Source of the DNA: an uncultured Campylobacter sp.
Lineage (GTDB): Bacteria; Campylobacterota; Campylobacteria; Campylobacterales; Campylobacteraceae
Direction of reading: 5' to 3'
Assembly: GCA_963526985.1 (NCBI GenBank)
Contig: CAURPW010000004.1
Coordinates: 79,480-143,479, forward strand
Length of the DNA: 64,000 nucleotides
Position numbers and translations under genes: made by a program. A model generated the notes under the pieces. That model was not told the DNA's origin. It searched no databases and saw only the letters and a list, made by a program, of their open reading frames with translations. Shown in pieces: positions 48,796 to 64,000 of this stretch. How positions within the stretch are numbered: position 1 is the stretch's first letter; each line of letters starts with the position of its first letter.

Positions 48796-48882
48796 GCCCG
48801 AGTGGTGAAACTGGTAGACGCGCCAGACTCAAAATCTGGTAAGGGCAACCTTGTGTCGGTTCGAGTCCGACCTCGGGCACCA
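48796..48882 (+). tRNA. tRNA-Leu (CAA)
   Basis: GCCCGAG acceptor, CCAGA-CT-CAA-AA-TCTGG anticodon arm, long variable arm, GGTTCGAGTCC, CCA end. Confidence 0.97.
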
Positions 48883-48883
48883 T
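48869..48883 (+). repeat. attL core
   Basis: GACCTCGGGCACCAT at the tRNA 3' end. Confidence 0.85.
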
Positions 48884-49091
48884 TATACAAAAAATGATCC
48901 CAAAATATTCGTATTAAGAAGTCCAATCAAATACCGAAATAGACGCATATACTAAACAAAAATATCATTGTCAATATAGCTAATTCGATAACTATCGTAT
49001 TAGTAGATATTGACAAAATTTAATGATATTTTTGCCTATTTTGAATACAAAACTTCCAAACTTTTTATAATTAAGTAAAAAGGACGAAAAC

Positions 49092-50363
49092 ATGAAACGA
49101 ATCATGTCTTTATCGGAAGTTGATCAATGGATCGAGAAACAATCAAACGATCGGGATTACACGATTAGGAAAAGAATCCCCGGTTATGAAGCTTTTCGCC
49201 TCGAAATAGGCTCTAAGCTCAAACAGAGAAAGTCTATCAGACTATATTGGAACGATAACGGAAAGGTTAGTTATCCTTTGCTAGGGATATACCCTTATGT
49301 AAAATTTGAAGAGGCTTTTCGGAAATTTGCCGATTTTGCGGGAAACAAGGATAGAGCCGAAAAACCTAGAGCAATACGTTTATTTAAGGATATTTGGATT
49401 GAATTCGTTAATGAAAATCCCCTAAGCTTCAAACAAAAAACGATCGATTCTTATAGAAAACGAACGAATCGTCATATCCTAAGCACGAGTATAGCGGATA
49501 TGGATATCGCCGACATTACTCTCGATGACCTAAAAATCGAAATATTTTCAAAAAATAAGAAGCAACCTGCTACAAACGTAAAACTTTTCTATATTCTCCG
49601 AAATATCCTAAAATTTGCGACCGAGAAGGGATATTTAAAAAACGATATACTCGAGAATTTTGTCTTTTCGGACTCGTATGAAGCTCCGTGCAAGACGAAT
49701 ACTCAATCTCATTCAAAAATCGTCAATAAGTTAGATCTTAAAAATTTTCTAGAATCGGTATCTAATGCAAAGATTAGCGTAAAGAAGAAAATTCTAATAT
49801 TCTTTGCGCTCGAAACAGCGCTTAGATCGATGAATTTGTTCGATCTGAAATGGAAAGATATCGATTTCGAAAAAAACCGTATATACATAGGTAAGGAAAG
49901 AATGAAGGGCGAGCTCCGAACGGAAAAATCTCGCCAAGACTTTATTTTACCTTTGTCGAATACCATGATCAGCTTATTAATGAGACTTCGAGAGTTAGAA
50001 AAAATCAAGAATTCCGATTTAAAGAAACGCGTATTCGACGGTATCGGCGATCAACCAATGAATGATCTATTAAGAAAACTTGCGGGCATAACAAAACACG
50101 GACTTCGCGGAACTTTCAAAACTCATGTCATGAAAGGTATCAAGGATCATAGAACTCCTAATTTCATCATCGAAATGTACATGTCTCATATACCCGATAT
50201 GACAAAAGTCGAAGCTTCCTACTTTGAAGCAAACTACAAGGATGACGAGAATCAGAAAATGATGAGAGAACTTGCAGAATGGTGGAATGACTACCTTCTA
50301 AAATTGTTTGATTTTAAAAAAATTCTATTAAATGAAGGAGAAAATGATGCATTATCATTGTGA
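49092..50363 (+). CDS. tyrosine recombinase/integrase
   Basis: Catalytic residues in order: TALR, MK, HGLR, MSH, ASY; N-terminal LGIYP arm-binding-like motif. Confidence 0.92.
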   Translation: MKRIMSLSEVDQWIEKQSNDRDYTIRKRIPGYEAFRLEIGSKLKQRKSIRLYWNDNGKVSYPLLGIYPYVKFEEAFRKFADFAGNKDRAEKPRAIRLFKDIWIEFVNENPLSFKQKTIDSYRKRTNRHILSTSIADMDIADITLDDLKIEIFSKNKKQPATNVKLFYILRNILKFATEKGYLKNDILENFVFSDSYEAPCKTNTQSHSKIVNKLDLKNFLESVSNAKISVKKKILIFFALETALRSMNLFDLKWKDIDFEKNRIYIGKERMKGELRTEKSRQDFILPLSNTMISLLMRLRELEKIKNSDLKKRVFDGIGDQPMNDLLRKLAGITKHGLRGTFKTHVMKGIKDHRTPNFIIEMYMSHIPDMTKVEASYFEANYKDDENQKMMRELAEWWNDYLLKLFDFKKILLNEGENDALSL

Positions 50364-51462
50364 TCCATGGGAGTATATGGGGGCCGATGTCGGAAGTTTG
50401 CCCCCTCTAGAAATTGACAATGAAGCAATTATATCGGATAATAGCTTAACTGTCAATGATGCTAACAACAATAAAACCAACAAGCTTTGGAGCGGAAGCC
50501 TCGACGTAAAAAACGAGCATAAACCCGAACCGACTGAGGATGTCGTGCCATTTTGCGTCGTTAAGAACACGATCACAAACCTTTTCGCCCCTGCCGGATC
50601 GGGAAAATCTTTCCTTGCCGTAGCGATCGCGCGAACCGCATTGTTCACTGATCGAGTCAAAGAAGTTTGGTGCATCGATGGTGACAACTCGCTTAGAACG
50701 GTATTCCAACGTGATATACTCGCAATTACGAAAGAAAATAAGAACTTTCACTACGTCAACCTTAATAATCCTCATATATCGCAAATTTCGGGTATTGATT
50801 TGGTAAAACAGCAGATCATAGCTTCCAAACGCGATCTAACCGATGTTTTAATCGTGTTCGACAGTTTAAAAGACTTCACAGCAAACTATGACATCATGAA
50901 GGACTCCGATATGCGGGAATTTTTCGGTCTGTTTATGACGATTCGAGACTTTCAACATGCGAGCATAATTTTCCTAAGCCATACCAACAAAGCCGGAGAA
51001 ACCTACAAGGGATCGACAAGCGTCATAGATTCGATCGAAACCGCATATCTCGTTCATCCGAAAAACAAGGGAGACGACGCGAAGAAATCGGGATATTTGG
51101 ACTATTATCTCGAAGGCGTCAAAGCTCGAGAAGGATGCATGTGTGTATGGGTTCGCGTTGATGCAATATCTAAACATATACAAGTTGAAGGCATCGATTA
51201 TCAGGGCTATGAAAAAGAACGAGATCAGCAATATATCGAGAAAATTGCGATCACTATACGAAACAATCCCGGAATTTGTCATAAAGAGCTAGCAAAGAAG
51301 CTAAGACGAAATAAAAAAGATAAAAGACTCATAAAAATACTAAACGAATTTACGGGGAATTTTTGGAGTCTAAAAATCAGAAATAAAAAGAAATGCTACT
51401 TCTATAATGAAAAGCTAGCCCTTCAATCGCTATACGAAAGGAAAAACAAGAATGTGTTCTAA
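50344..51462 (+). CDS. AAA/RecA-fold ATPase (RepA helicase-like) with C-terminal HTH-like region
   Basis: Walker A APAGSGKS, Walker B IVFDSL, LSHTNK...YKGS; tail NPGICHKELAKKL; AAGGAG RBS. Confidence 0.8.
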   Translation: MMHYHCDPWEYMGADVGSLPPLEIDNEAIISDNSLTVNDANNNKTNKLWSGSLDVKNEHKPEPTEDVVPFCVVKNTITNLFAPAGSGKSFLAVAIARTALFTDRVKEVWCIDGDNSLRTVFQRDILAITKENKNFHYVNLNNPHISQISGIDLVKQQIIASKRDLTDVLIVFDSLKDFTANYDIMKDSDMREFFGLFMTIRDFQHASIIFLSHTNKAGETYKGSTSVIDSIETAYLVHPKNKGDDAKKSGYLDYYLEGVKAREGCMCVWVRVDAISKHIQVEGIDYQGYEKERDQQYIEKIAITIRNNPGICHKELAKKLRRNKKDKRLIKILNEFTGNFWSLKIRNKKKCYFYNEKLALQSLYERKNKNVF

Positions 51463-51580
51463 AAACACTACCTATTTTTCAAAAAAGACTACCTATCTGG
51501 AGCAAAAAGACTACCTATTTTTGAAAAAACACTACCTATTTTCAAAAAAACACTACCTATCTGAGGCAAAAACACTACCT
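51461..51580 (+). repeat. six iteron-like direct repeats
   Basis: AAAAA(C/G)ACTACCT, ACTACCT cores at 51467, 51488, 51510, 51531, 51552, 51574. Confidence 0.93.
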
Positions 51581-51686
51581 GATGGTCTAGTTTTCATTAA
51601 TAATACATTTAAAAAAGCGGTTAGAATATCGTATTTATCGGTATTCTTTAAAAACAGTTTCATTTACTTTTATAAAAGGAGGGAAA

Positions 51687-51986
51687 ATGAAAAAAATAAG
51701 TGACAAATTGCTAGAACAAACGTTAAAAGATTTTGTAGAAATTGATGATTTAACATACATCAAAGATCGATGCTTTGCGGTGATCTTTAAAACCGAGATG
51801 TCGGTAAAAAAGTATGTCGAATTTATCAAGAAGACTTTCGAATTTGAGGTATCCGTTTCTACGGTTAGAGAATGGAGAGCTGAATTTGATGAGAAAAATA
51901 AAGTTCAAAAGGAAAAACCGGAAGATCATCAAAACGAGGCAATTAGCGATGGCGATATTAGTCAGCAACAATCAAACGGAAACTAA
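51687..51986 (+). CDS. small hypothetical protein, possible HTH
   Basis: AAAGGAGG RBS; VSVSTVREWR resembles a recognition helix. Confidence 0.7.
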   Translation: MKKISDKLLEQTLKDFVEIDDLTYIKDRCFAVIFKTEMSVKKYVEFIKKTFEFEVSVSTVREWRAEFDEKNKVQKEKPEDHQNEAISDGDISQQQSNGN

Positions 51987-52561
51987 CCTAAGCGGGGAGA
52001 CTCTCCTCGCTTCTAGTTCTCTTGAAAATTCGATCTCTGAAGCTAGAAATTTGTCGATTGAGCTTGATCAAAAATCAGCAAATTTAAAGGCAAAATTCGA
52101 GGAAATTAAAACGGAAACCAATGTGACTTTAACTCAGGTTTTTGCAAAAATGGATGCTAAAGAAACCGCTTTCACGAACAGCATAAACAGATCTGCGGAT
52201 AACGCTGTGAACAAGATATCCAAATCAGTAAACGAGTTAAAGCAAGGTGCGGACTTGGTTAAAAATATTTGGATTATTCCTCAAGCGATTATGATACATG
52301 TAATTTTGTTTATCGTTGAATTAGCGTTTGTTTTATGGATCTGCTTACCTGTAATCAATCAATCAAGCAAGAAAGACATTAAGTAATAACGAGCAAATTA
52401 TAAAAATATCTCTTGAACGAAAACAAGAAAACGAAAAATTGCTTCGAGAAAATCAAGGCTTAAACGACGAGCTTATAAGCCTAAACGGATTTGTTAATGC
52501 TATTTTCAAAGACAAAGAAAAGGCTAGACGTGAATATCAAAAATGGAAATCTTATAATTAA
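51949..52561 (+). pseudogene. coiled-coil/TM protein split by a 4-bp duplication
   Basis: Frame stops at 52386; deleting one AATC of three (52353-52364) gives ...PVINQARKTLSNNEQ...KWKSYN* ending 52561. Confidence 0.7.
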
Positions 52562-52580
52562 TTTGATTATAGAAGAATTT

Positions 52581-52635
52581 AGCGTGACACATATTCGTAT
52601 ATACACTTCGTGTATATACGAATATGTGTCACGCT
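52581..52635. repeat. 26-bp perfect inverted repeat, candidate oriT
   Basis: AGCGTGACACATATTCGTATATACAC-TTC-GTGTATATACGAATATGTGTCACGCT upstream of mobC. Confidence 0.88.
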
Positions 52636-52757
52636 CTTGCAGAGGGCTGTTAATCCTTTAGCTTAAAACAGAGCTAAAAGGATTAACCAAAGGTGAGAGT
52701 TTTAATCTAAGGTTTAAAACTCTTTTATATTTTTTTATCAAAAACAAGGAGCTTTTT

Positions 52758-53099
52758 ATGATAAAAAATAAAAATATAATCTTACGAGTTTCGGAAGAAT
52801 TTCGAGAATTACTCGGACAAAAAGCTAGCAAGGTTGGAATACCTATCTCGGAATATCTTCGAAAATCGGCGATGAATTCCGAGATCGTGAATTACGTTTC
52901 TAAAGAGATCGATCCACAAATCATATTTAATTTTTATCGCGCGGCGGAGAACATAAATCAGATTGCTAAAGCAACAAATACGATCGCAAAACAAGAACAA
53001 ATAAGCAGGGATTTTGAAATAAAAATCCTCGAAGCTTTGTATAGAAACGAACAGCTTTTGAATCAAATTTACGTTACGTTAAAAGGAGAAAAACAATGA
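52758..53099 (+). CDS. mobC: MobC relaxosome accessory protein (ribbon-helix-helix)
   Basis: IILRVSEE...ISEYLR, NINQIAK motif; ATGA overlap with relaxase. Confidence 0.88.
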   Translation: MIKNKNIILRVSEEFRELLGQKASKVGIPISEYLRKSAMNSEIVNYVSKEIDPQIIFNFYRAAENINQIAKATNTIAKQEQISRDFEIKILEALYRNEQLLNQIYVTLKGEKQ

Positions 53100-55566
53100 T
53101 AGCTCAACTCACAAAAGGCGAAAAAGGAATCGCCGAATATCTAGAAACCGGACATACAAAACATTCTGTATACTCAAGAGACGAAAAGGATCAAAGAATA
53201 CCGCTCATGGGAAACTTGCAAGCGATCAAGGATAGCCAAGATTCGCAATTAAAAAATCCAAAAAGCAAGCAAAAACACAACTATTATCATGCTTCATTGT
53301 CATTCACTAGGGAAGAGTGGGATAAGCTACAATCAGAAGGAAAGATCAACGAGGTTTTAGATGAATACATTAAGCTAAACTTTCCAAATCATTCGAGGGA
53401 TGAGATGATATGCTATGCCGAAGCCCACGTGCCTATAATTCAAAGCGAGCCGTACATCCCTAGGGAAGGGGAAGATCAAAAATCAAAAAGACTCAACGAG
53501 GAGTACGAAGGCAAGGAGATCGGACGAAGTCCGCATGTCCATTTGATTATATCGTTTGAAAATATGAAGTTTAGCCGAGGCATAAAAACCGCGGGAATGG
53601 TATATTCAAAGGATCGTTCTCAAATGATAGCTTCGGCTATAAAGTTCAAGTCTATTGTTCAAGATATCGTTTGCGAAAAATTTGGACTCGATAATCCCGA
53701 ACCATTAAAAATATCTCGATCTGAGCTATATCGACAGTATGAATCCTTTCGAAAAGCCGCAATGGTTCCAAAAGGAAAACCGAAAATTCAAGAAGAGATC
53801 GACCCTAAACAAATACTAGAAACTAGCCCAATCCAAGCTGAAACAAAGGATATAACTCTTGACGAAATCAAAGAGAATACGAAAAATAGCGTAGTAGAAA
53901 ACGAGATCGTAAAAACTATCGATCCTGAAATTAGAGCTCAAAATATCCAATTAGCCGAAATGCTGAAATCGAAAAACGTCGATATCTTTATTCCTACCTT
54001 AAAAGCTAGATACGGCGTAAATATTCGATCAAACGAGGACGGAACAAGAATTCAATTCGAAACGATTACCCAGAAGACTAGGAAACCCAGTACGAGAAAC
54101 ATGAATGTTTTGGACTATGTGACTAAAGAGCTTCGTATTCGCTTTGACGATGCCGTGAAGATATTAAGCGATATTGCGCTCGAGCAAGAATCCTTAGCTA
54201 AATACCGATACTATCGAGCTTAGCGTATCAAATGATTTTAGAATCAATCAAAAAGCTACGCAAGAAGCCATTAAAAAAGGGAGTATAAATAAAAAAATAT
54301 ACTATGCCGAAATCGGATGGAAAACGATAACTACGAATCCGCAGAATATCGAAAATGTTTTGCGACAATACTCGGATATAAGCATGGCTAAATTTTCGAA
54401 CGGATCGCGAAATAATGCGAATATATCGGGTTTTACAAAAACTCTCATATTCGACATCGACAACAAAGAGCCTCATCAGGATATGAAAATTTCCGATGGT
54501 ATCGAACTACTCAAAAGAAAAGGCATTCAGGGCTTTATCTACCCATCCTCGAGTCATCTCTACGACGGAAAAACCGAGAAATTTCGTATGATTGTTCCTA
54601 CCACGAAAGCCCTTCAAGACAAGGATATTTATAAGGATTATATGCATCTTGTAGTAAGAAATCTCGGGCTTGAAGGAAAGATCGATACTGTTTCGGATAC
54701 TTCTTCGCAATGCTATTATCAGCCATTAAAAAAAGATAACGTGATTTTGGTGGACGGAAAGACCTTCGACAATTCGGAGATCTTGCGACAAACTCAAATC
54801 CTCAAGCAGGCAAGAATCGAACAAGGTATCGAAAATCAAGCTATCAATAATATCGATCAAATCAAGCAAGGCATAGATGCTACAAAGAAATTTGAACTTC
54901 AGCATGAACCGATCGATGATGAACGATATTTGACGAGAGTGTCGCTACAATCATTGCATGATCGCATTCCTTTTTATGATCTTGTTAGGTATTTCGAGCC
55001 TAACGCTACGATCCACCAAGAAGGAAAAAACCAAATCATGCACACAAAAGACGGTAGGCATCTATACATCCAAGATCAAAACTCGGCATATTTGTTTTCC
55101 AAGAATCGCTATGTGACTCCTTACACTTACCTTCAAGAGAGGATAAACGAAGCTGCAAGCGAGATCAAGTATCATGGAAACGGCGAGAATGTTCAAAAAT
55201 TAGGGATTCTTCCAAACGAGCTAAATACTTTTAATCCGAAGAATCCGAATGAAATTTCGAAATTCTTCGCTAGAAAGTTAAGCAAATACTGGAGATCTAT
55301 CACGAGTTTTAATCTTAAAGGGTTTGTAAAAACAATCAACCGATGCATGTCTAACTGGAATGATCATCAAGGAAAGAGTCAAGTTATGGAGCATTATCAA
55401 CTTCGAAAATTAGACATTTTCGAGGATTCTCTAAATGTAGGATATTGGGGGATCAATCAAGAAGTCGGATCTACTATCCAACGGGTTAGATGAAAGATTC
55501 AATAAGTCTGAAATCGAAATCAAAGACAAAGAACAAACTAAAAAATACGATGGTTTAGACAGATAG
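53096..55566 (+). pseudogene. relaxase-primase fusion with two frameshifts
   Basis: 53096-54223: N-terminal Tyr (IAEYL), YHASLSF, HUH motif PHVHLI. Next frame open 54198-55493 with FDIDN, PSSSH, KFRMIVP, SQCYYQP (AEP-like). Third frame continues to TAG 55566. Confidence 0.78.
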
Positions 55567-55599
55567 TTTTAAACAATATAAATTTAGATCATATATATA

Positions 55600-56000
55600 G
55601 CTTTTGCCTTAGTTAAACTTCGGATTTACGTAAAATGAAAGGCAAAAGCGTAATTCAAAATGTCTTTTTTATCCCCCGCTCCAGCTCCAAGTATTCGCTA
55701 TTTCGGGAGATACGCTCTTCGAGCTATACCGCGGTTTCGACCCATTGCACGCGCACTAGAACTTATGATTTGGTATGATTTAGCGCGTGCATGAGGCCCC
55801 CGAAATCCGCGAAATAAGAACTAGCATATATCTTCAAACAAGCCTCAATACAAATTTCGATTTTGGGTCCCGAAGCGACGAAGTCGTTTGGAAAAAAAAA
55901 AATCGAAGGTCATCGCAGGCGGAAGCCGGCGGTATTCTAGCACCATTGCCCGCCTAATCGATACAAAAGGCAAGGCAAAAAAGGCGGGGCAAGGGGCTAG
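55600..56000. other. GC-rich cluster of stem-loops
   Basis: IRs 55600-55610/55639-55649, 55746-55754/55783-55791 (nested), 55937-55955/55982-56000. Confidence 0.7.
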
Positions 56001-56162
56001 GATAAAACATATTGCATTACGCCTTAGGAAAAATTTTCAATTAAATTTTGAACAAACCTTTTATTTTTTAAGATCATATTTATATTTTTTCGATATGATC
56101 GTAATTAAAGTTTTGCTAAATTGTCGAATATATCGTGATTTACGCAGGGTTTCTTTTATTTT

Positions 56163-56177
56163 GACCTCGGGTACCAT
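56163..56177 (+). repeat. attR core
   Basis: GACCTCGGGTACCAT, 14/15 identical to attL. Confidence 0.85.
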
Positions 56178-56756
56178 AGCATACAATTTACGCATTCAAA
56201 ACCCCTAAAATATGGCATTTCAAAACGAGCTTTCGTTCAACTGGCAGTAAGAAACAGCCTCGATTACTATACATTTTTTACTATGTAGCCGTTTTTTACC
56301 TAGTAAACAAAAAATAACGGACTATACGCTAAAAGAGCCACAAAAGCACCCAAAATACGATATTTCAAGAAAAATCAAAATACAAAAGCGCGCGGATATA
56401 ATTAGTTTTGAGGGAAACCAAACTAACCCCTCAAAAAGGAGATGAAATGAAAAAAAAATCCGCGACAACAAAGAGTTTGCCCGCAACCCGCAGGCTGTAA
56501 TTATGGCTTGTACTCCAGAGCGCAAAAATGCGAAATGCTTGATAACTCGCAATTATAAAGCCGACAAAAGCAATCATAGGCGCGAGTTCTACTACTATGC
56601 CGACGTTTTCAATTGACTTACAATAAAATCTCGCATTTAATTTTAAATTGCCTTACTGTTAAATTTTCGCCGTAAAACCAAAAATTTTAATAATATTTAA
56701 TCTATTTAAGTAAATTTATTGTAAAATCTCGCCCAAATTTTATAAAAAGGCAAACG

Positions 56757-58466
56757 ATGGACACCTATATTATTCCGGCGGAAGTAAGCGTCAAAGACGC
56801 GGAATTTTTTAGGCAAAAATGGCAAGAATATAAAAACGGCGAGCTTGATTTTAAAGGTTTTGAGAAAATTCGCGTGGCGTTTGGGATATACGAACAGCGC
56901 GTAAAAGACAGCTACATGGCGCGGGTAAAAACGCATGGCGGCGGCGTTGGCGCGAAAGAATTCGCGCGTCTAGGCGAGCTTTGCAAGCGCTACGCCAACG
57001 GATTTTTGCATCTATCTACGAGAGCTAGCATTCAGCTTCATTTCGTAAAAGACGACGAATTTATAGAGCTTGAAAACGAGATCGCCGCGATAAATATGAC
57101 TACGCGCGGCGCATGCGGGGATTGCGTTAGAGGCGTGGTTTGCGACGCGTTAGCGGGAGTCGCCAAAGACGAGGCTTTTAACGTCCTTCCCTACGCAAAC
57201 GCTATTACTAGCATGCTTATCGGCAGAGCCGATTCTTACGGACTTTCTAGGAAATTTAAAATCGCTTTTTCAGGCTCCAAGGCTGACCGAGCAAACGCGA
57301 CTATCACGGACGCGGGCTTTATAGCGACCAAAAAAGGCGGCAAAAAAGGCTTTATAGTCTACGTCGCGGGCGGAATGGGCTCAAAACCGCGCCTAGGCGA
57401 TAAATTTAAAAGTTTCATCCCCGCAAACGAAGCCTTTTTATACGCGCAAGCCATCAAGCTCGTGTTTGCTAAAACCGGCGATTACGAGCATAGAAACTCC
57501 GCCCGCCTGCGCCATGCCGCCGAGAAGCTAGGAAAAGAGACGATTTTTAAAATGATCGAGGACGAGGTCGCAAAAATTAGAGCTTCAAGCGAAAAATGGA
57601 GGCTGGATATCAAAGAGCCAAGGGGCGTTAAGCCGCTAATAAGCGAGCCTCGCGTTAGATTTTCCGCCGCGCAAAAAGCCTGGGCGCAAAACTACGTAAC
57701 AGCGCAAAAACAAAAGGGCTATTACTACGCCGTAGTGCCGTTTTTATGGGGTAACGTGCGCGGAGACGATGCGATAAAGCTATCAAAAGCGCTTATTAAA
57801 CTCGGCCTAAAAGATTCGCTTTTTATAAGCCGAGATCAACATATAATCTTAAAAAATCTCAAAAAGACCGATCTTATCGCACTTTATCCCGTTATCGCGG
57901 AGATTTCGCCTATGAGCGCCGATCCGCGCGTGTTTGCAAACATGACTCCGTGCACGGGCGCATCGACCTGTCGGCTAGGAATTTGCCGTCCAAAAGGCGC
58001 CGTGAAGGCTATCCACGATCATATTAGAAACAGCGATTTAGACTTTTCTCTTTTAAAAGATATCGTTATTAAAATGTCGGGCTGTCCAAACTCTTGCACC
58101 GCTCATCAAAACGCAAATTTAGGCTTTATGGGCGGCACTAGGCGCGAGGACGGCAGATCGCTTCCTTATTACAGCGTATTTGCCGGAGGCGAGCTAAAAG
58201 AAGGCAAAAGCAAATTCGGCAAAAAAGTAGGCGGCGTGGCCGCTTATCACGTGCCTGAATTCGTCTACCAAACGCTTAAAAGATTTACGCAAGTAAAATC
58301 CGAGTTTAAAAATTTTAACGACTGGGTCGATAACGGCGGAGATAACGTCATAGCTGAGCTTTGCGGGCTGTATCAGCGCGTGGGGACGTTTGAGGAAAAC
58401 CCGAGGGCGTATTATGACTACGGCGCGGACGTGCTTTTTGGCGAAACGCTAAAAGATAAAATTTAA
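56757..58466 (+). CDS. siroheme-[4Fe-4S] sulfite (or nitrite) reductase
   Basis: GIYEQR, STRASIQ, LSRKFK, CTGASTC and GCPNSC; heads a cys operon. Confidence 0.88.
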   Translation: MDTYIIPAEVSVKDAEFFRQKWQEYKNGELDFKGFEKIRVAFGIYEQRVKDSYMARVKTHGGGVGAKEFARLGELCKRYANGFLHLSTRASIQLHFVKDDEFIELENEIAAINMTTRGACGDCVRGVVCDALAGVAKDEAFNVLPYANAITSMLIGRADSYGLSRKFKIAFSGSKADRANATITDAGFIATKKGGKKGFIVYVAGGMGSKPRLGDKFKSFIPANEAFLYAQAIKLVFAKTGDYEHRNSARLRHAAEKLGKETIFKMIEDEVAKIRASSEKWRLDIKEPRGVKPLISEPRVRFSAAQKAWAQNYVTAQKQKGYYYAVVPFLWGNVRGDDAIKLSKALIKLGLKDSLFISRDQHIILKNLKKTDLIALYPVIAEISPMSADPRVFANMTPCTGASTCRLGICRPKGAVKAIHDHIRNSDLDFSLLKDIVIKMSGCPNSCTAHQNANLGFMGGTRREDGRSLPYYSVFAGGELKEGKSKFGKKVGGVAAYHVPEFVYQTLKRFTQVKSEFKNFNDWVDNGGDNVIAELCGLYQRVGTFEENPRAYYDYGADVLFGETLKDKI

Positions 58467-59758
58467 TGACCCTACCAGTAGCCCTTACACCTAAACGCGT
58501 GCTTTTAATCGGAGCCGGAAAGGTCGCGCGGCAAAAATTTTTAGCTCTAAAAGCGGCCAGTTGGGAGTGCGAAATTTTAGCCGAAAAAATTTTAGAGCCG
58601 TTTTTTGCCGATAAAAACGTAAAAATTCGCAAGCTAACGCGGCAAAATTTGGGCGAAAATTTAAGCGGCTTTGAAATGATAATAGACGCTAGCGGAGATG
58701 AAAATTTAGGGCAGGCTTTATTTAGCGAGCGTAAAAGCTTGGGCTATTTGCTAAACGTAGTCGATAAGCCTGCTTTAAGCGATTTTTATTTTACCGCAAA
58801 CGCGCATTTAGGCGAGCTTAGCGTAGGCGTTAGCACTAACGGCGCGAGTCCTAGCCTAGCCGCGCTCGTAAGGGATAAAATAGTCAAAATTTTGCCTAGG
58901 AATTTAGCGGATTTTATCCCGAAGCTAAAACTAGCCAGGCTTGAGGCGATTGAAAATTCTAACCCGCAAAAGGCCGAAATTTTAAAACCGAAGTGCCGCG
59001 AAAATTTAGGCAAAGTTTTTTTAATCAGCTGCGGCAGCGGCAGCCTTCAAAATCTCACCTTGGGCGCGCTTGAAGCGTTTGAGCTGCTAGACGTAGCTCT
59101 AAGCGATAAACTAGTCGGCGAGGATACGCGCGAAATTTTACGAAATTTAGGCGTAGAGATTATTAACGTAGGCAAGGGCAAAGACGAAGATAGCGCGACG
59201 CAAGAGCAAATAAACGCCCTTATGCTAAGCCTGGCAAAAGAAGGCAAGACCGTCGGGCGGCTAAAAGGCGGCGACGCGAGCTTGTTTGGCAGAGCGTTTG
59301 AGGAGATGAGCTTTTTAGAGGAAAACGGCGTGGAATTTGAGCTAATTAGCGGCGTCAGTTCGGTTTTTGCCGGATGCGCTAGCGCGCTTATTACGCCTAC
59401 GATTAGAGGCGTTAGCAGCGGCGTTTTGATAGTCTCGGCGCATCTAAAAGGCGGCGCGATAAACACCGCTTGGCTTGAAATTTTAAAGACGCGAGACGTT
59501 ACGACGGTCGCGCTTATGGCGCACGCTTATGCGGGCGAAATTTTAAATGCGGCAAGAAAGCTAAATTTAGACCTAGATACGCCCGCGGCGTTTGTTTCAA
59601 ATATAGATAGAGCGGATGAAAAAGTAATCGTCGGACGAATAAAAAATTTAGAATCTATGGCGCTAAGATGCGCTCGTCCCGCGATTTTAATAATCGGCCC
59701 CGTCGTCGAAAAATCGCTAAGCTTGAAACCAAAATGCGAAAGGATAGCCGTTGAATAA
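58466..59758 (+). CDS. cysG: siroheme synthase (dehydrogenase/ferrochelatase + methyltransferase)
   Basis: GAGKVA, NVVD.P..DF, STNGASP, RLKGGD...FGR, GVSS. Confidence 0.88.
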   Translation: MTLPVALTPKRVLLIGAGKVARQKFLALKAASWECEILAEKILEPFFADKNVKIRKLTRQNLGENLSGFEMIIDASGDENLGQALFSERKSLGYLLNVVDKPALSDFYFTANAHLGELSVGVSTNGASPSLAALVRDKIVKILPRNLADFIPKLKLARLEAIENSNPQKAEILKPKCRENLGKVFLISCGSGSLQNLTLGALEAFELLDVALSDKLVGEDTREILRNLGVEIINVGKGKDEDSATQEQINALMLSLAKEGKTVGRLKGGDASLFGRAFEEMSFLEENGVEFELISGVSSVFAGCASALITPTIRGVSSGVLIVSAHLKGGAINTAWLEILKTRDVTTVALMAHAYAGEILNAARKLNLDLDTPAAFVSNIDRADEKVIVGRIKNLESMALRCARPAILIIGPVVEKSLSLKPKCERIAVE

Positions 59759-60743
59759 AATTTTAATCTTTTTAGCGCTTATAAATTTTGCCGCCGCGCA
59801 ACAGCTTTTAAACGTCTCTTACGACGCGACGCGGGAGCTTTTTAAAGAATATAACGCGCTTTTCGTTAAATACTACGAGCAAAAAAGCGGCAAAAAGATT
59901 AAAATTTTACAAAGCCACGGCGGTAGCGGCGCGCAGGCTAGGATGCTAATAGACGGATTAAAAGCCGACGTCGCGACGCTGGCTCTTGCTTACGACATTA
60001 ACGCCGTCGCGCGAAAAAGCGGCGCTTTGGACGCTTCGTGGCAAGAAGAGCTCCCGCTAAACTCCGCGCCTTACAACTCCACGATCGTATTTTTGGTTAG
60101 AAAAGGCAATCCAAAAGGTATAAAAGACTGGGACGATCTAGTAAGAAACGACGTAAAAATCGTAACTCCAAATCCCAAAACATCAGGCGGCGCGAGGTAT
60201 AACCACCTAGCCGCATACGCCTACGCGGCGGCTAAATTTGACGGAGACGAGGATAAAATTCGCGAATTTTTGGTTAAACTTTACGCCAACGCTCCCGTAC
60301 TAGACGCAGGCGCTCGCGGATCGGCAAACACTTTCATACGCCGCGGTATCGGCGACGCGATGATCGCTTGGGAAAACGAAGCGTATCTTAGCAAAGCAAG
60401 GCTAGGAGAGGACGAGTTTGAGATTATCTACCCAAGCCTTAGCATCCTAGCGCAGCCTCCTGTCGCGGTTTTAAGCAAAAACGCCGCCGCAAACGGCAAC
60501 GTCCCGATTGCTCGCGAATATCTGGCGCGCCTTTATTTGCCTGACGCGCAGGAGATTATCGCAAAAAATTTCTTCCGCCCGACGGACGAAAGCGTCGCTA
60601 AAAAATACGAGAAAATTTTCCCGCGAATAAATTTAATAAGCATAGAGAGCTTTGGCGGTTGGGACGCGGCGCAAAAGCGGCATTTTAGCGATGGGGGCGA
60701 GTTTGATAAAATTTACGAGATCGTAGCAAAGGGCAAAAAATGA
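59751..60743 (+). CDS. sbp: sulfate ABC transporter substrate-binding protein
   Basis: LLNVSYD.TRE, QSHGGSG.Q, PNPKTSGGAR, WENEA. Confidence 0.94.
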   Translation: MNKILIFLALINFAAAQQLLNVSYDATRELFKEYNALFVKYYEQKSGKKIKILQSHGGSGAQARMLIDGLKADVATLALAYDINAVARKSGALDASWQEELPLNSAPYNSTIVFLVRKGNPKGIKDWDDLVRNDVKIVTPNPKTSGGARYNHLAAYAYAAAKFDGDEDKIREFLVKLYANAPVLDAGARGSANTFIRRGIGDAMIAWENEAYLSKARLGEDEFEIIYPSLSILAQPPVAVLSKNAAANGNVPIAREYLARLYLPDAQEIIAKNFFRPTDESVAKKYEKIFPRINLISIESFGGWDAAQKRHFSDGGEFDKIYEIVAKGKK

Positions 60744-61567
60744 GAAAATTTTTACTTAAAAAGCCCTCTATTTTGCCGGGATTTAATATCTGCTTCGGCC
60801 TTGGCGCCAGCTACGTTTGCTTTTTGGTTTTACTACCGCTGGTGGCTCTGGGCGCTTTTAGCTTTAAGGGCGGCATAGGCGAAATTTTAGCCGTTATCAG
60901 CGATCCTCGCGTATTATCGGCGCTTAAATTTTCATTTACGGCTTCATTCGTCGCCGCCGCGATAAATTCGCTTTTCGGTTTTATTATCGCGTGGTGCTTG
61001 GCGCGTTACGAATTTTGGGGCAAGGGCTTTATTAGCTCGCTCATAGATATTCCTTTTGCGCTACCTACGGCGGTAGCGGGGATTTGCCTGGCGTATTTAT
61101 TTTCGCATGGCGGCGTTATGGGCGCTACGCTTTTAAGGCTCGGCATAGATTTGCAAGGGGCGGATTTCACTTGCGTCGTAATCGTTTTGATATTCGTAGG
61201 TATGCCGTTTGTAGTGCGGACGACGGAGCCCGTTATAAAAGATTTTGATAAACAAGTGCTTGAAGCGGCCGAAAATTTAGGCGCGAATTTTTGGCAAATT
61301 TTTAGGCTAATAATGCTTCCAAGCCTGCTTCCGTCCTTGATAACGGGCTTTGCGCTAGCCTTTGCAAGAGGCCTTGGCGAATACGGCTCGGTCATTTTTA
61401 TTTCGAGCAACATCCCTTTTAAAAGCGAAATTTTACCCGTTTTAATCGTCTCGCGCCTAGATAGTTTTAATTATCAAGAAGCCGCCGTAATCGGATTTTT
61501 TATGATTTTAGTAGCATTTGCCTCGCTATTTTTGATAAATTTCATACAAAAAAAGGTCGCAAAATGA
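60740..61567 (+). CDS. cysT: sulfate ABC permease CysT
   Basis: DIPFALPTAVAG, PFVVRT, GEYGSVIF. Confidence 0.93.
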   Translation: MRKFLLKKPSILPGFNICFGLGASYVCFLVLLPLVALGAFSFKGGIGEILAVISDPRVLSALKFSFTASFVAAAINSLFGFIIAWCLARYEFWGKGFISSLIDIPFALPTAVAGICLAYLFSHGGVMGATLLRLGIDLQGADFTCVVIVLIFVGMPFVVRTTEPVIKDFDKQVLEAAENLGANFWQIFRLIMLPSLLPSLITGFALAFARGLGEYGSVIFISSNIPFKSEILPVLIVSRLDSFNYQEAAVIGFFMILVAFASLFLINFIQKKVAK

Positions 61568-62370
61568 GCGAACCGAAAATTTTAAAGCCCGTTTTGCTTT
61601 TAATTAGCGCCGCGTTTTTATTCGTTTTTATCGCGCTTCCGCTTTATACCATCGTATCAGAAGCCCTAAAAGACGGGCTTAGCGGCTATTTTAGCGCGAT
61701 TAGCGACGATTACGCGATTAGCGCGGTAAAGCTTAGCCTGCTTTGCGCGGGATTTTGCGTGGTTATAAATACCGTATTTGGCGTTATGATAGCCTACGCG
61801 GCGGCGAAATTCGAGTTTCGCGGCAAGACTATGCTACTTACGCTTTTAGATATGCCCTTTGCCGTTTCGCCCGTTATCGCAGGGCTAATGTTCGTGCTGC
61901 TTTTTGGAAATAGCGGCTTTTTGGGAAAATTTTTTAGCGCGCTAAATTTCGACGTGATTTTTGCGCTGCCGGGTATTTTGCTAGCTAGCGCGTTCGTTAC
62001 CTTTCCGTTTGTAGCCAAGGAGACGCTTTTGTTAATGCAAGAGCAAGGAAATAGCGAGGAAGAGGCGGCGTTTAGCCTGGGGGCGGGCGGACTTCGCACG
62101 TTTTTTAGCGTTACGCTACCGAACATAAAATGGGGGCTATTTTACGGCGTAGTGCTAACAAACGCCAGAGCGATGGGCGAATTCGGCGCCGTGGCGGTCG
62201 TAAGCGGCAAGATAATCGGGCTAACTACTACGATGCCCCTTTATATAGAAATTTTATACAGCGATTATCTTTACGTAGCGGCTTTTAGCGTAGCTAGCTT
62301 GTTGCTGCTGCTCTCGGTAGTCACGCTGGCGCTCAAATTTTTAGTTCAAAAAGCTAGCAAAAGGGGCTAA
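61564..62370 (+). CDS. cysW: sulfate ABC permease CysW
   Basis: DMPFAVSPVIAG, LPNIKWG, ARAMGEFGAV. Confidence 0.94.
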   Translation: MSEPKILKPVLLLISAAFLFVFIALPLYTIVSEALKDGLSGYFSAISDDYAISAVKLSLLCAGFCVVINTVFGVMIAYAAAKFEFRGKTMLLTLLDMPFAVSPVIAGLMFVLLFGNSGFLGKFFSALNFDVIFALPGILLASAFVTFPFVAKETLLLMQEQGNSEEEAAFSLGAGGLRTFFSVTLPNIKWGLFYGVVLTNARAMGEFGAVAVVSGKIIGLTTTMPLYIEILYSDYLYVAAFSVASLLLLLSVVTLALKFLVQKASKRG

Positions 62371-63420
62371 ATGGGTATAAAAATATCGAATTTAAATAAA
62401 ATTTTCGGCGATTTCGTCGCTCTTAAAAACGTAAATTTAGAGATAAACAAAGGCGAGCTAACCGCGCTTTTAGGACCTAGCGGCAGCGGCAAAACGACGC
62501 TACTTCGCATAATCGCGGGCTTAGAAAGCGCCGATAGCGGCGAAATCTCGTTTTTCGGCGAAAACGTCAGCCGCAAAAGCATAAAAGAACGCGGCATAGG
62601 CTTTGTTTTTCAGCACTACGCGCTATTTAGGCATATGAGCGTGTTTGATAATATAGCGTTTGGACTAAACGTCCGTCCAAAAGCCTCGCGCCCGAGCAAA
62701 GACGAGATAAAGCAGCGCGTCATGCACCTGCTAAAAATGATCCAGCTAGAAAGCTTGGCGGGGCGCTTCCCAGATGAGCTAAGCGGCGGGCAAAAACAGC
62801 GCGTGGCGCTAGCTAGGGCGCTAGCGGTGGAGCCTAAAATTTTGCTGTTAGACGAGCCGTTTGGGGCGCTAGACGCAAAGGTTAGAGCAGATCTGCGCAG
62901 GTGGCTAAGAAAACTACACGACGAGATTCAGATTACTAGCGTGTTCGTTACGCATGATCAAGAAGAAGCGCTAGAAGTAAGCGATAAAATAGTCGTGATG
63001 AATAAAGGCGAGATCCAGCAAGTAGGCACGCCCGTAGACGTTTACGAAAAACCGGCCAATCCTTTCGTGTATAGCTTTTTGGGCAACGTAAATCTCTTTC
63101 GCGGCAGAGTGGGCGCTGATGGTATCGTAAGCGACGAGAGCGCGGGAGATCTGCTTTTCGTGCGGCCTCACGAGATAGAGCTTGGCTTTGAATACAGCGC
63201 CGGCTCTAAAAAAGGCGAGATCGTGCATAGCCGAATTTTAGGCTCTCGCATTAGGCTTGATATTAAGATGCAAGAAAGCGCGGATATGGTCGAGGTCGAT
63301 ATCACGAGCGCGAAATTTAAAGACATAAAAGAGAAAAATTTAAAATTCGTATATCTAAATTTTACTAGCGTGCATAGCTACTCGCAAGAGGACGGGAGTT
63401 TTTGTGATTACTACATATAA
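62371..63420 (+). CDS. cysA: sulfate ABC ATPase CysA
   Basis: [30 protein letters not shown]. Confidence 0.95.
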
Positions 63421-64000
63421 TGAAGCGACGTCGCGTTTGGCGGCGGTTTTGGCAGAGATAAAGGGACGCGTCGCGCTGGCATTTTCGCACCAGATAGAGG
63501 ACTGTATCGCGATAGATATGGCTCTAAAATCGGGCTTTGATCTAGATAGGCTTGAAATTTTTACCCTCGATACGCATAAGCTTTTTAAAGAGAGTTTAGA
63601 GTATCAAAAAGAGGTAGAGAAATTTTTCGGTATTAAGATAAAAACATACGCCATTAGCGGCGAGACGCTAGCCCAAGTGGACGAAAAGATCGGGCAATGG
63701 GGCATGAGAGATAGCGTAGAAAACCGCAAATTTTGTTGCCATCAGCGAAAAATGATCCCTTTGCGCGAGGCGCTAAATAAAAAAGAGGCGTGGATAAGCG
63801 GCATAAGGGCGGCTCAAAGCGTAACTAGAACGGGCGTTAGCCTGTGCGAAACGGACGCGAATTTTAATTTAAAAAAAATCAACCCGTTATTTGATTTTAG
63901 CGACGAGTTTATGTGGGGCGTCGCGCGCGAGCTAAATTTGCCCGTAAACGAGCTTTATGCGAAAGGATACGCCAGTATCGGCTGCGAGCCCTGTACCCGC
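63404..64000 (+). CDS. cysH: APS/PAPS reductase, Fe-S type; runs off the window edge
   Basis: Manual translation from GTG 63404 (GGAG RBS): [38 protein letters not shown]. Confidence 0.92.

Follow-up and report, generated by a model that had tools for sequence, protein, structure and literature searches.

A decaying mobilisable element at a Campylobacter tRNA-Leu gene belongs to an apparently undescribed family of integrative elements

We analysed a 64,000-nucleotide stretch of DNA from an uncultured Campylobacter sp. (contig CAURPW010000004.1, assembly GCA_963526985.1), here called the window, in which a tRNA gene carries a 7.3-kb element at its 3′ end. The target, an intact tRNA-Leu(CAA) gene (48796–48882, + strand), ends in the left attachment (att) core, attL (48869–48883), and a second core with one mismatch, attR (56163–56177), lies in the same orientation at the far end, enclosing the element between two 15-bp repeats. 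The core reads GACCTCGGG[C/T]ACCAT; the genome holds only these two copies, and its recurrence is expected by chance about 0.0003 times per 10 kb. The GC content of the element is 36.6%, against 45.5% for the genome. All of its genes lie on the + strand, and none of the eight open reading frames (ORFs) scanned matched type IV secretion system (T4SS), phage-structural or resistance families, as the first-pass annotation had described.

The element begins with a tyrosine integrase (49092–50363, + strand) that is intact by its Pfam match (Phage_integrase, E = 2e-11) and by its catalytic residues, R245, H336, R339, H366 and Y377, all of which are present. Its profile matches are P4-like families, and it is 93% identical to a sibling integrase at tRNA-Leu and 52–56% identical to siblings at tRNA-Lys. 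The integrase stop is overlapped by the start, likely 50344 or 50347, of an ATPase gene (50332–51462, + strand) whose product is assigned by Pfam, fold and sequence to a RepA-like, AAA_25 group of the RecA or superfamily 4 (SF4) fold. Structure comparison places it among RecA, DnaB and RepA proteins; RSF1010 RepA aligns over 190 residues (Z 14.6, root-mean-square deviation (rmsd) 4.0), scoring about 1 lower than the leading RAD51-type rows, and is also the best solved sequence match (E = 6e-5). Domain fusions point to a replicative helicase: among 48 homologues scanned (picked from 150 and biased to long ones), 20 carry a DnaB-N, Prim-Pol, Toprim or CHC2 domain in the same protein. Inside the 5′ end of the ATPase gene (50414–50456) lie a perfect TTGACA-17-TATAAT on the − strand, which could yield an antisense RNA over the integrase–ATPase junction, and an 11/12 match on the + strand; promoter and terminator scans overall gave counts no higher than those of shuffles.

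The ATPase ends in a domain of three helices and a short hairpin (51217–51400) that is conserved in 32 aligned homologues and that a structure model and weak Pfam matches suggest is a probable winged helix, making it a candidate iteron-binding domain. Directly behind the gene stand six direct repeats with the core ACTACCT, 21–22 bp apart (51461–51580, + strand), candidate iterons of a vegetative origin (oriV). This array is the longest run of its kind in the genome and is reached by 0 of 200 shuffles; within 330 bp the core occurs six times forward and never in reverse. An AT-rich stretch follows (51581–51686, 25.5% GC), a candidate unwinding element.

Next comes a mobilisation module, read on the + strand. 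It opens with a conserved 99-aa ORF (51687–51986), probably a helix-turn-helix (HTH) protein judging from a weak profile match and its conservation, and continues with a MobB-like coiled-coil protein with one membrane segment (51949–52561), a single ORF of 190–203 aa in siblings and two pieces here (51949–52386 and 52355–52561). Just before mobC, an inverted repeat followed by a conserved GCTCTTGCAGAGGGCT forms a candidate origin of transfer (oriT; 52581–52650, + strand). Its hairpin is conserved out to loci of the C. concisus type, and of its 16 pairs, compared over 11 sequences, nine stay paired through double changes. The inverted repeat is a perfect palindrome with 26-bp arms (52581–52635) in the window copy alone, being imperfect in 10/10 aligned sibling sequences; we infer a templated correction of a quasi-palindrome, which would have changed the likely oriT in its right arm. 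An IMG/VR search with the oriT motif gave nine matches, none with any element protein, and these were rejected as chance, and in an Rfam scan the tRNA alone passed, matches of miRNA families on the palindrome falling far below the cut-off. The mobC gene (52758–53099) encodes a MobC/NikA-like ribbon-helix-helix relaxosome protein (profile match, E = 3e-13).

The remaining coding sequence corresponds to an 826-aa fusion of relaxase and primase, which the first-pass annotation had named correctly as a kind of protein; the fusion is real in relatives, yet in the window it is frameshifted, which the annotation missed, and is not one open frame. Its N-terminal piece is a MOBP-type HUH relaxase (53096–54223), its C-terminal piece an archaeo-eukaryotic primase (AEP) domain with a part resembling the DnaG zinc-binding domain behind it (54198–55493), out of frame with the relaxase, and the last approximately 37 codons lie in a third frame (55450–55566), all on the + strand. 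We take relaxase and primase to be one protein because 45 relatives of 776–839 aa, returned by a search for longer relatives, span both. The relaxase motifs Y15, H65, H147 and H149 are invariant in 18/18 full-length fusions, and the nearest plasmid relatives are LPD7-type relaxases of conjugative plasmids (23–32% identical), one of which, when inspected, was typed MOBP. The primase domain folds as an AEP, the top six structure rows all being of that type; the best, S-2L PrimPol (E = 4e-5, Z 7.3, rmsd 4.1, 148 aligned), and the second, RSF1010 RepB′ (Z 6.8, rmsd 3.6, 149 aligned), both have middling Z scores. Residues D85, D87, H119 and D162 are invariant in 10/10 sequences, and a PHROGs scan of the primase part gave a helicase–primase match (E = 1.5e-7). 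A PDB profile search with the fusion returned nothing useful.

Between the fusion and attR lies a conserved, GC-rich region of several hairpins (55660–56030), a candidate single-strand priming signal, or RNA, as judged by conservation and folding. Its stems are kept while the loops vary by up to 39 nt; the region has no Rfam match, and the C. concisus-type loci yielded no copy of it.

Site-specific insertion of this element, and its spread across hosts, is established by comparison with relatives. When the right flank was matched against 142 genus genomes, 11 besides that of the window matched over most of its length. Four of these (G137, G151, G132 and G143) have an empty site in which the full tRNA gene directly joins the flank, and in three of the four the left flank (1.38 kb) aligns too; six carry other inserts and one has no att match. 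Relatives lacking the element thus join 48883 to 56178, and the earlier proposal of a site-specifically integrated, cargo-free mobilisable element is supported. The tRNA-Leu site is a hot spot, holding a 38-kb prophage in G012 and a different small element with a related integrase in G093 and G130. A different 5.6-kb element with the same tRNA-Leu att core, an integrase 54% identical and two unknown ORFs of about 500 aa each occurs in three loci (L188:831–6440, L190:1412–7109 and L187:1176–6746), standing in L187 in tandem behind a prophage-like gene. We considered that the right flank, whose start has no DNA match in 40 sampled relatives, might be part of a bigger island, and rejected this: it is an ordinary tRNA-Leu neighbour in the closest genomes. 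The flank directly after attR (56757–64000) is a sulfate-assimilation cluster with sulfite/nitrite reductase and siroheme synthase; a sequence reading adds a sulfate ABC transporter and an ORF like phosphoadenosine phosphosulfate (PAPS) reductase.

With a site-specific integrase, att repeats and empty sites, its own relaxase and no complete mating-pair system, the element classes by its gene content as an integrative mobilisable element (IME). The window copy is a worn one. Its reading frames are broken in three places: in the fusion near 54200 and near 55450, and in the MobB-like gene near 52355. These breaks are probably real rather than assembly errors because two of the three are not homopolymer changes. 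Of 10 family loci checked, eight have an unbroken fusion, and the window and G124 a broken one. VirB4 and VirB10 have no match in the host genome; across the genus, VirB4 matches at E below 1e-100 in 39 of 142 genomes. Given the frame breaks and a host that lacks VirB4 and VirB10, the copy is probably badly impaired in transfer. Integrase, MobC, ATPase and repeats appear undamaged, and the copy probably can still excise, with transfer poor or nil. Elsewhere in the same genome, C12:7444–14565 holds another island, with an integrase that is split, an ORF like a coupling protein and an ORF like ClpP, and C14:2482–4026 a second coupling-protein-like gene, though VirB4 was not found in the genome.

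Nine loci combine integrase, ATPase and relaxase–primase (the window, G146, G106, G124, G149, G157, L072, L073 and L077), at tRNA-Leu(CAA), tRNA-Lys(CTT) and tRNA-Glu(CTC), and a tenth, colinear copy stands at the same site in another host. The recurrence of one gene set at three tRNA types in nine loci, together with this colinear sibling, supports reading the element as an IME. All family loci with flanks are chromosomal, and a DNA search of PLSDB (72,556 plasmids) with the element gave no match. Modules are mixed among the loci: relative to the window, G146 has an ATPase 92% identical but an integrase only 52% identical, and L072 an integrase 93% identical but an ATPase 26% identical.

The relaxase–AEP fusion has a wider range: among 141 other genus genomes, 55 match it at all and 43 hold it at full length; homologues from C. 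concisus, C. curvus and C. suis are labelled ‘aminotransferase’ by NCBI. The distant, C. concisus-type loci that we fetched have neither ATPase nor window-type integrase nearby (15/15). In four of five that were extended, the module belongs to an island of 20.7–24.2 kb that lies at tRNA-Met and bears a DUF6538 integrase at its opposite end; in the fifth, the stretch covered stops short of the end but includes type III restriction genes. Because relaxase–primase travels without ATPase and iterons, gene neighbourhoods assign the primase first to the transfer module, not simply to a replicon. In one locus (L129:7715–17179) the mobilisation module stands among genes that read, from their ORFs, as type III CRISPR subunits, and a 5.8-kb Helicobacter suis plasmid (L065:922–2412) has a stand-alone AEP-domain homologue between RepL genes and mobC–relaxase.

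The ATPase has a range of its own, its family being common to satellite-like islands and Mu-like prophage. One satellite-like island, present in the window’s own genome (C21:2297–7705) and in L057 (4460–9773), combines an integrase (in pieces in C21), small HTH-type ORFs, probable primase pieces and an ATPase of this family, behind which L057 has direct and inverted repeats. In L060 (9138–11326) an HTH_17 protein, the same ATPase family and an unrelated VirD2-like relaxase stand in a row, pairing the helicase cassette with a different mobilisation module.

The repeat behind the gene changes with the C-terminal domain of the ATPase. In G146 the ATPase C-terminus is 99% identical and three worn copies of the window’s repeat follow; in L077, with the core 92% and the C-terminus 67% identical, there are six ATGACGT-type repeats at 22 bp; and G106, with a different ATPase (core 39%), has a third repeat type, six copies of CACTTTGC type, of which G124, with a G106-type ATPase, keeps a remnant. 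The colinear sibling at the same site diverges from the window over 51295–51582, that is, over the end of the C-terminal domain and the repeats. Further out, distant ATPases of the family in integrase-bearing islands without transfer genes have direct and inverted repeats behind the gene in 5/5 cases (0–5 of 200 shuffles). Because the repeats change when the C-terminal domain changes, a helicase-initiator in the style of Staphylococcus aureus pathogenicity islands (SaPIs) is suggested, a reading that we find about evenly poised. The broader proposal is that the family is a one-protein replicon, in which a RecA-fold (SF4, RepA-like) helicase would itself bind the origin and initiate there, by means of an exchangeable winged helix at its C-terminus, and that conjugative hitch-hikers and phage-satellite-like Campylobacter islands would share the helicase–iteron cassette, each with its own repeat specificity; this we put forward tentatively, the balance being slightly against it. 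At this junction L077 has an ATPase frame without a stop before the repeats, which reads through them (L077:6239–7483), and G146 has a 74-aa ORF between repeats and HTH gene (L052:11438–11662) that is decayed in G106 and absent from the window and L077.

Several observations weigh on the other side. The winged helix sits in a low-confidence part of the structure model, its matches to winged-helix families in Pfam are weak (best E 0.002, 2 of 11), a PDB profile search with the domain found nothing relevant, and ESM Atlas returned unnamed clusters only. The ATPases of L072, L073 and G157 have no such domain, yet L072 and L073 hold five 21-bp-spaced repeats (0/100 shuffles); the arrays of G146, G124 and G157 are not above shuffle level; and Mu-like prophage loci with the same ATPase family have no repeats in 4/4, their Mu-like status being a reading, with only the C. 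coli one annotated. Independent ATPase–repeat types are few, so the covariation rests on only about four. At the right end, covariation of the stems is slight (5 of 88 pairs).

Compared with known systems, the element is of a kind already in print: replicating mobilisable islands such as SGI1, an IME with an iteron oriV and Rep (PMC7826253, PMC8409611), GIsul2, with RepA and RepC, and an IncP island with RepA and a MobP relaxase (PMC5704250) are described. Such islands likewise have a site-specific tyrosine integrase, depend on a helper T4SS and carry their own replicon; they differ in using Rep_3/IncN-type or RepC initiators, in carrying mating-pair subunits and cargo, where the Campylobacter element has neither T4SS subunit nor cargo, and in not being described with a relaxase–primase fusion. 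SaPIs (PMC9371898, bioRxiv 10.64898/2026.10.17.759575) pair a helicase that ends in a winged helix with iterons that directly follow its gene. With these and P4-type Rep-ori systems the element shares integration, repeats immediately downstream of the helicase gene, an AT-rich region and a partner primase, and would share the winged helix, which is probable here. SaPI Reps, however, are SF3 or SF6 (AAA+) motors, not RecA/SF4; the self-loading initiator-helicases of the works consulted are SF3 or SF6. SaPI iterons face each other around the AT-rich region, whereas the repeats here are all direct (opposed arrays are seen in the satellite-like relatives), and the element is proposed to spread by conjugation, not by phage. 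In description it resembles, from a different phylum, Bacteroides NBU1 and NBU2, which the same review (PMC5704250) presents as small IMEs at the 3′ end of tRNA-Leu or -Ser with a tyrosine integrase and a MobP relaxase, mobilised in trans. Finally, the AEP domain recurs in 17 of 118 genomes of another family, apparently Helicobacter-type by gene content and matches to Helicobacter plasmids, in an ICE-type protein (ICE, integrative and conjugative element); there (L143) it is fused to Toprim, not relaxase, and stands beside a VirD2-like relaxase and an integrase. NBU1, for its part, has a separate primase-like gene. Full-text literature searches, whose scope left out subscription journals and supplements, turned up no paper on this family or gene combination, and the element appears to represent, as a decayed copy, a Campylobacter IME family not previously described. 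The first-pass annotation knew of no described family of this sort in Campylobacter; integrated islands with a RepA-type replicon are already in print (PMC5704250).

We consider it likely that the element is a minimal IME built of three exchangeable modules, of which the window holds a decaying copy. The annotation had instead proposed an integrative version of the IncQ architecture, which, taken literally, would be an integrated IncQ-family plasmid with RepA, RepB′, RepC, iterons and single-strand initiation (ssi) sites to which an integrase was added. The likeness to the IncQ and IncQ2 plasmids RSF1010, pTF-FC2 and pTC-F14 is real at the level of parts: a RepA-like SF4 helicase, for which RSF1010 RepA is the best solved match and the RepA of pTC-F14, our IncQ2 reference, aligns at 79% probability; an AEP-fold primase fused to a relaxase, with RepB′ the second fold match; a ribbon-helix-helix accessory protein; and an iteron array. 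In IncQ plasmids RepA needs RepC, and the priming hairpins ssiA and ssiB lie beside the iterons; in the element the right-end hairpins, candidate priming signals, stand 4 kb from the repeats. IncQ replicons are listed as RepABC (PMC6312765). The RepC of pTC-F14, which finds itself in a positive control, gives no tblastn match at E 1 when searched against 10 family loci and the genome, and no unassigned ORF of the element has the size of RepC; the RepC profile PF06504 found no match in the genome, its controls being silent too. The fusion gives no alignment with pTC-F14 MobA/RepB (hhalign probability 0.2) and has no Pfam match to RepB_primase or MobA_MobL, its relaxase being kin to MOBP LPD7-type enzymes. 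The helicase has an extra C-terminal domain with iterons directly behind its gene, its family extends to satellite-like islands and Mu-like prophage, and the element is integrated by a tyrosine integrase rather than being a free plasmid, with no DNA relative among the plasmids searched. Since no RepC was found and the fusion cannot be aligned with MobA/RepB, the element is, on sequence grounds, not IncQ, and an integrated IncQ plasmid is very improbable indeed.

An IME that does not replicate is a less remote alternative, if still an unlikely one. Here ATPase and repeats would serve excision or regulation, as a nucleoprotein complex replacing an excisionase, and the primase would act only after transfer. 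The overlap of the ATPase start with the integrase stop would fit, as would the 15 loci in which the primase occurs without the ATPase; no excisionase was identified in the element, which also counts against the replicating IME that we favour, and for NBU1 to excise, a pair of additional genes is required together with oriT and a portion of the relaxase gene (PMC5704250). Against this, ATPase homologues are fused to primase and DnaB-N domains, and ATPase and repeats have moved together, away from the integrase, in L072, L073 and G157. Arrays of 21–22-bp repeats with an AT-rich stretch are, moreover, typical of origins. A satellite akin to phage-inducible chromosomal islands (PICIs), with an acquired mobilisation module and movable by either route, would account for the P4-like matches of the integrase and for the same ATPase family with repeats in islands that have no transfer genes. 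Yet no terminase, capsid, packaging or helper-interference gene was recognised in the element, and IMG/VR holds no relative of it, including of its ATPase; we regard this origin as improbable.

For the minimal mobilisable element that we favour, a cycle can be sketched. The tyrosine integrase inserts the element at the tRNA 3′ end, duplicating the 15-bp core, as comparison shows. By homology, MobC would bind the inverted repeat and the MOBP relaxase would nick beside it, the T4SS of another element exporting the nicked strand. The fused AEP primase would travel with the strand and, once in the recipient, prime synthesis of the complementary one, perhaps at the hairpins of the right end. Anatomy suggests in addition, with the arguments for and against in near balance, that the excised circle would replicate, the RepA-like helicase binding its own iterons through the C-terminal winged helix; RepC would then not be needed, and the AEP would prime.

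These data sketch for the first time a mobile family that is common in oral Campylobacter yet has gone unrecognised, alongside C. concisus islands of 21–24 kb in which the relaxase–primase accompanies restriction-type cargo. Should the helicase prove to be its own initiator, origin recognition by an SF4 helicase could be tested directly on natural pairs whose sole differences lie in the C-terminal domain and the repeat, and the family would offer a small replicon with an integrase for poorly tractable species.

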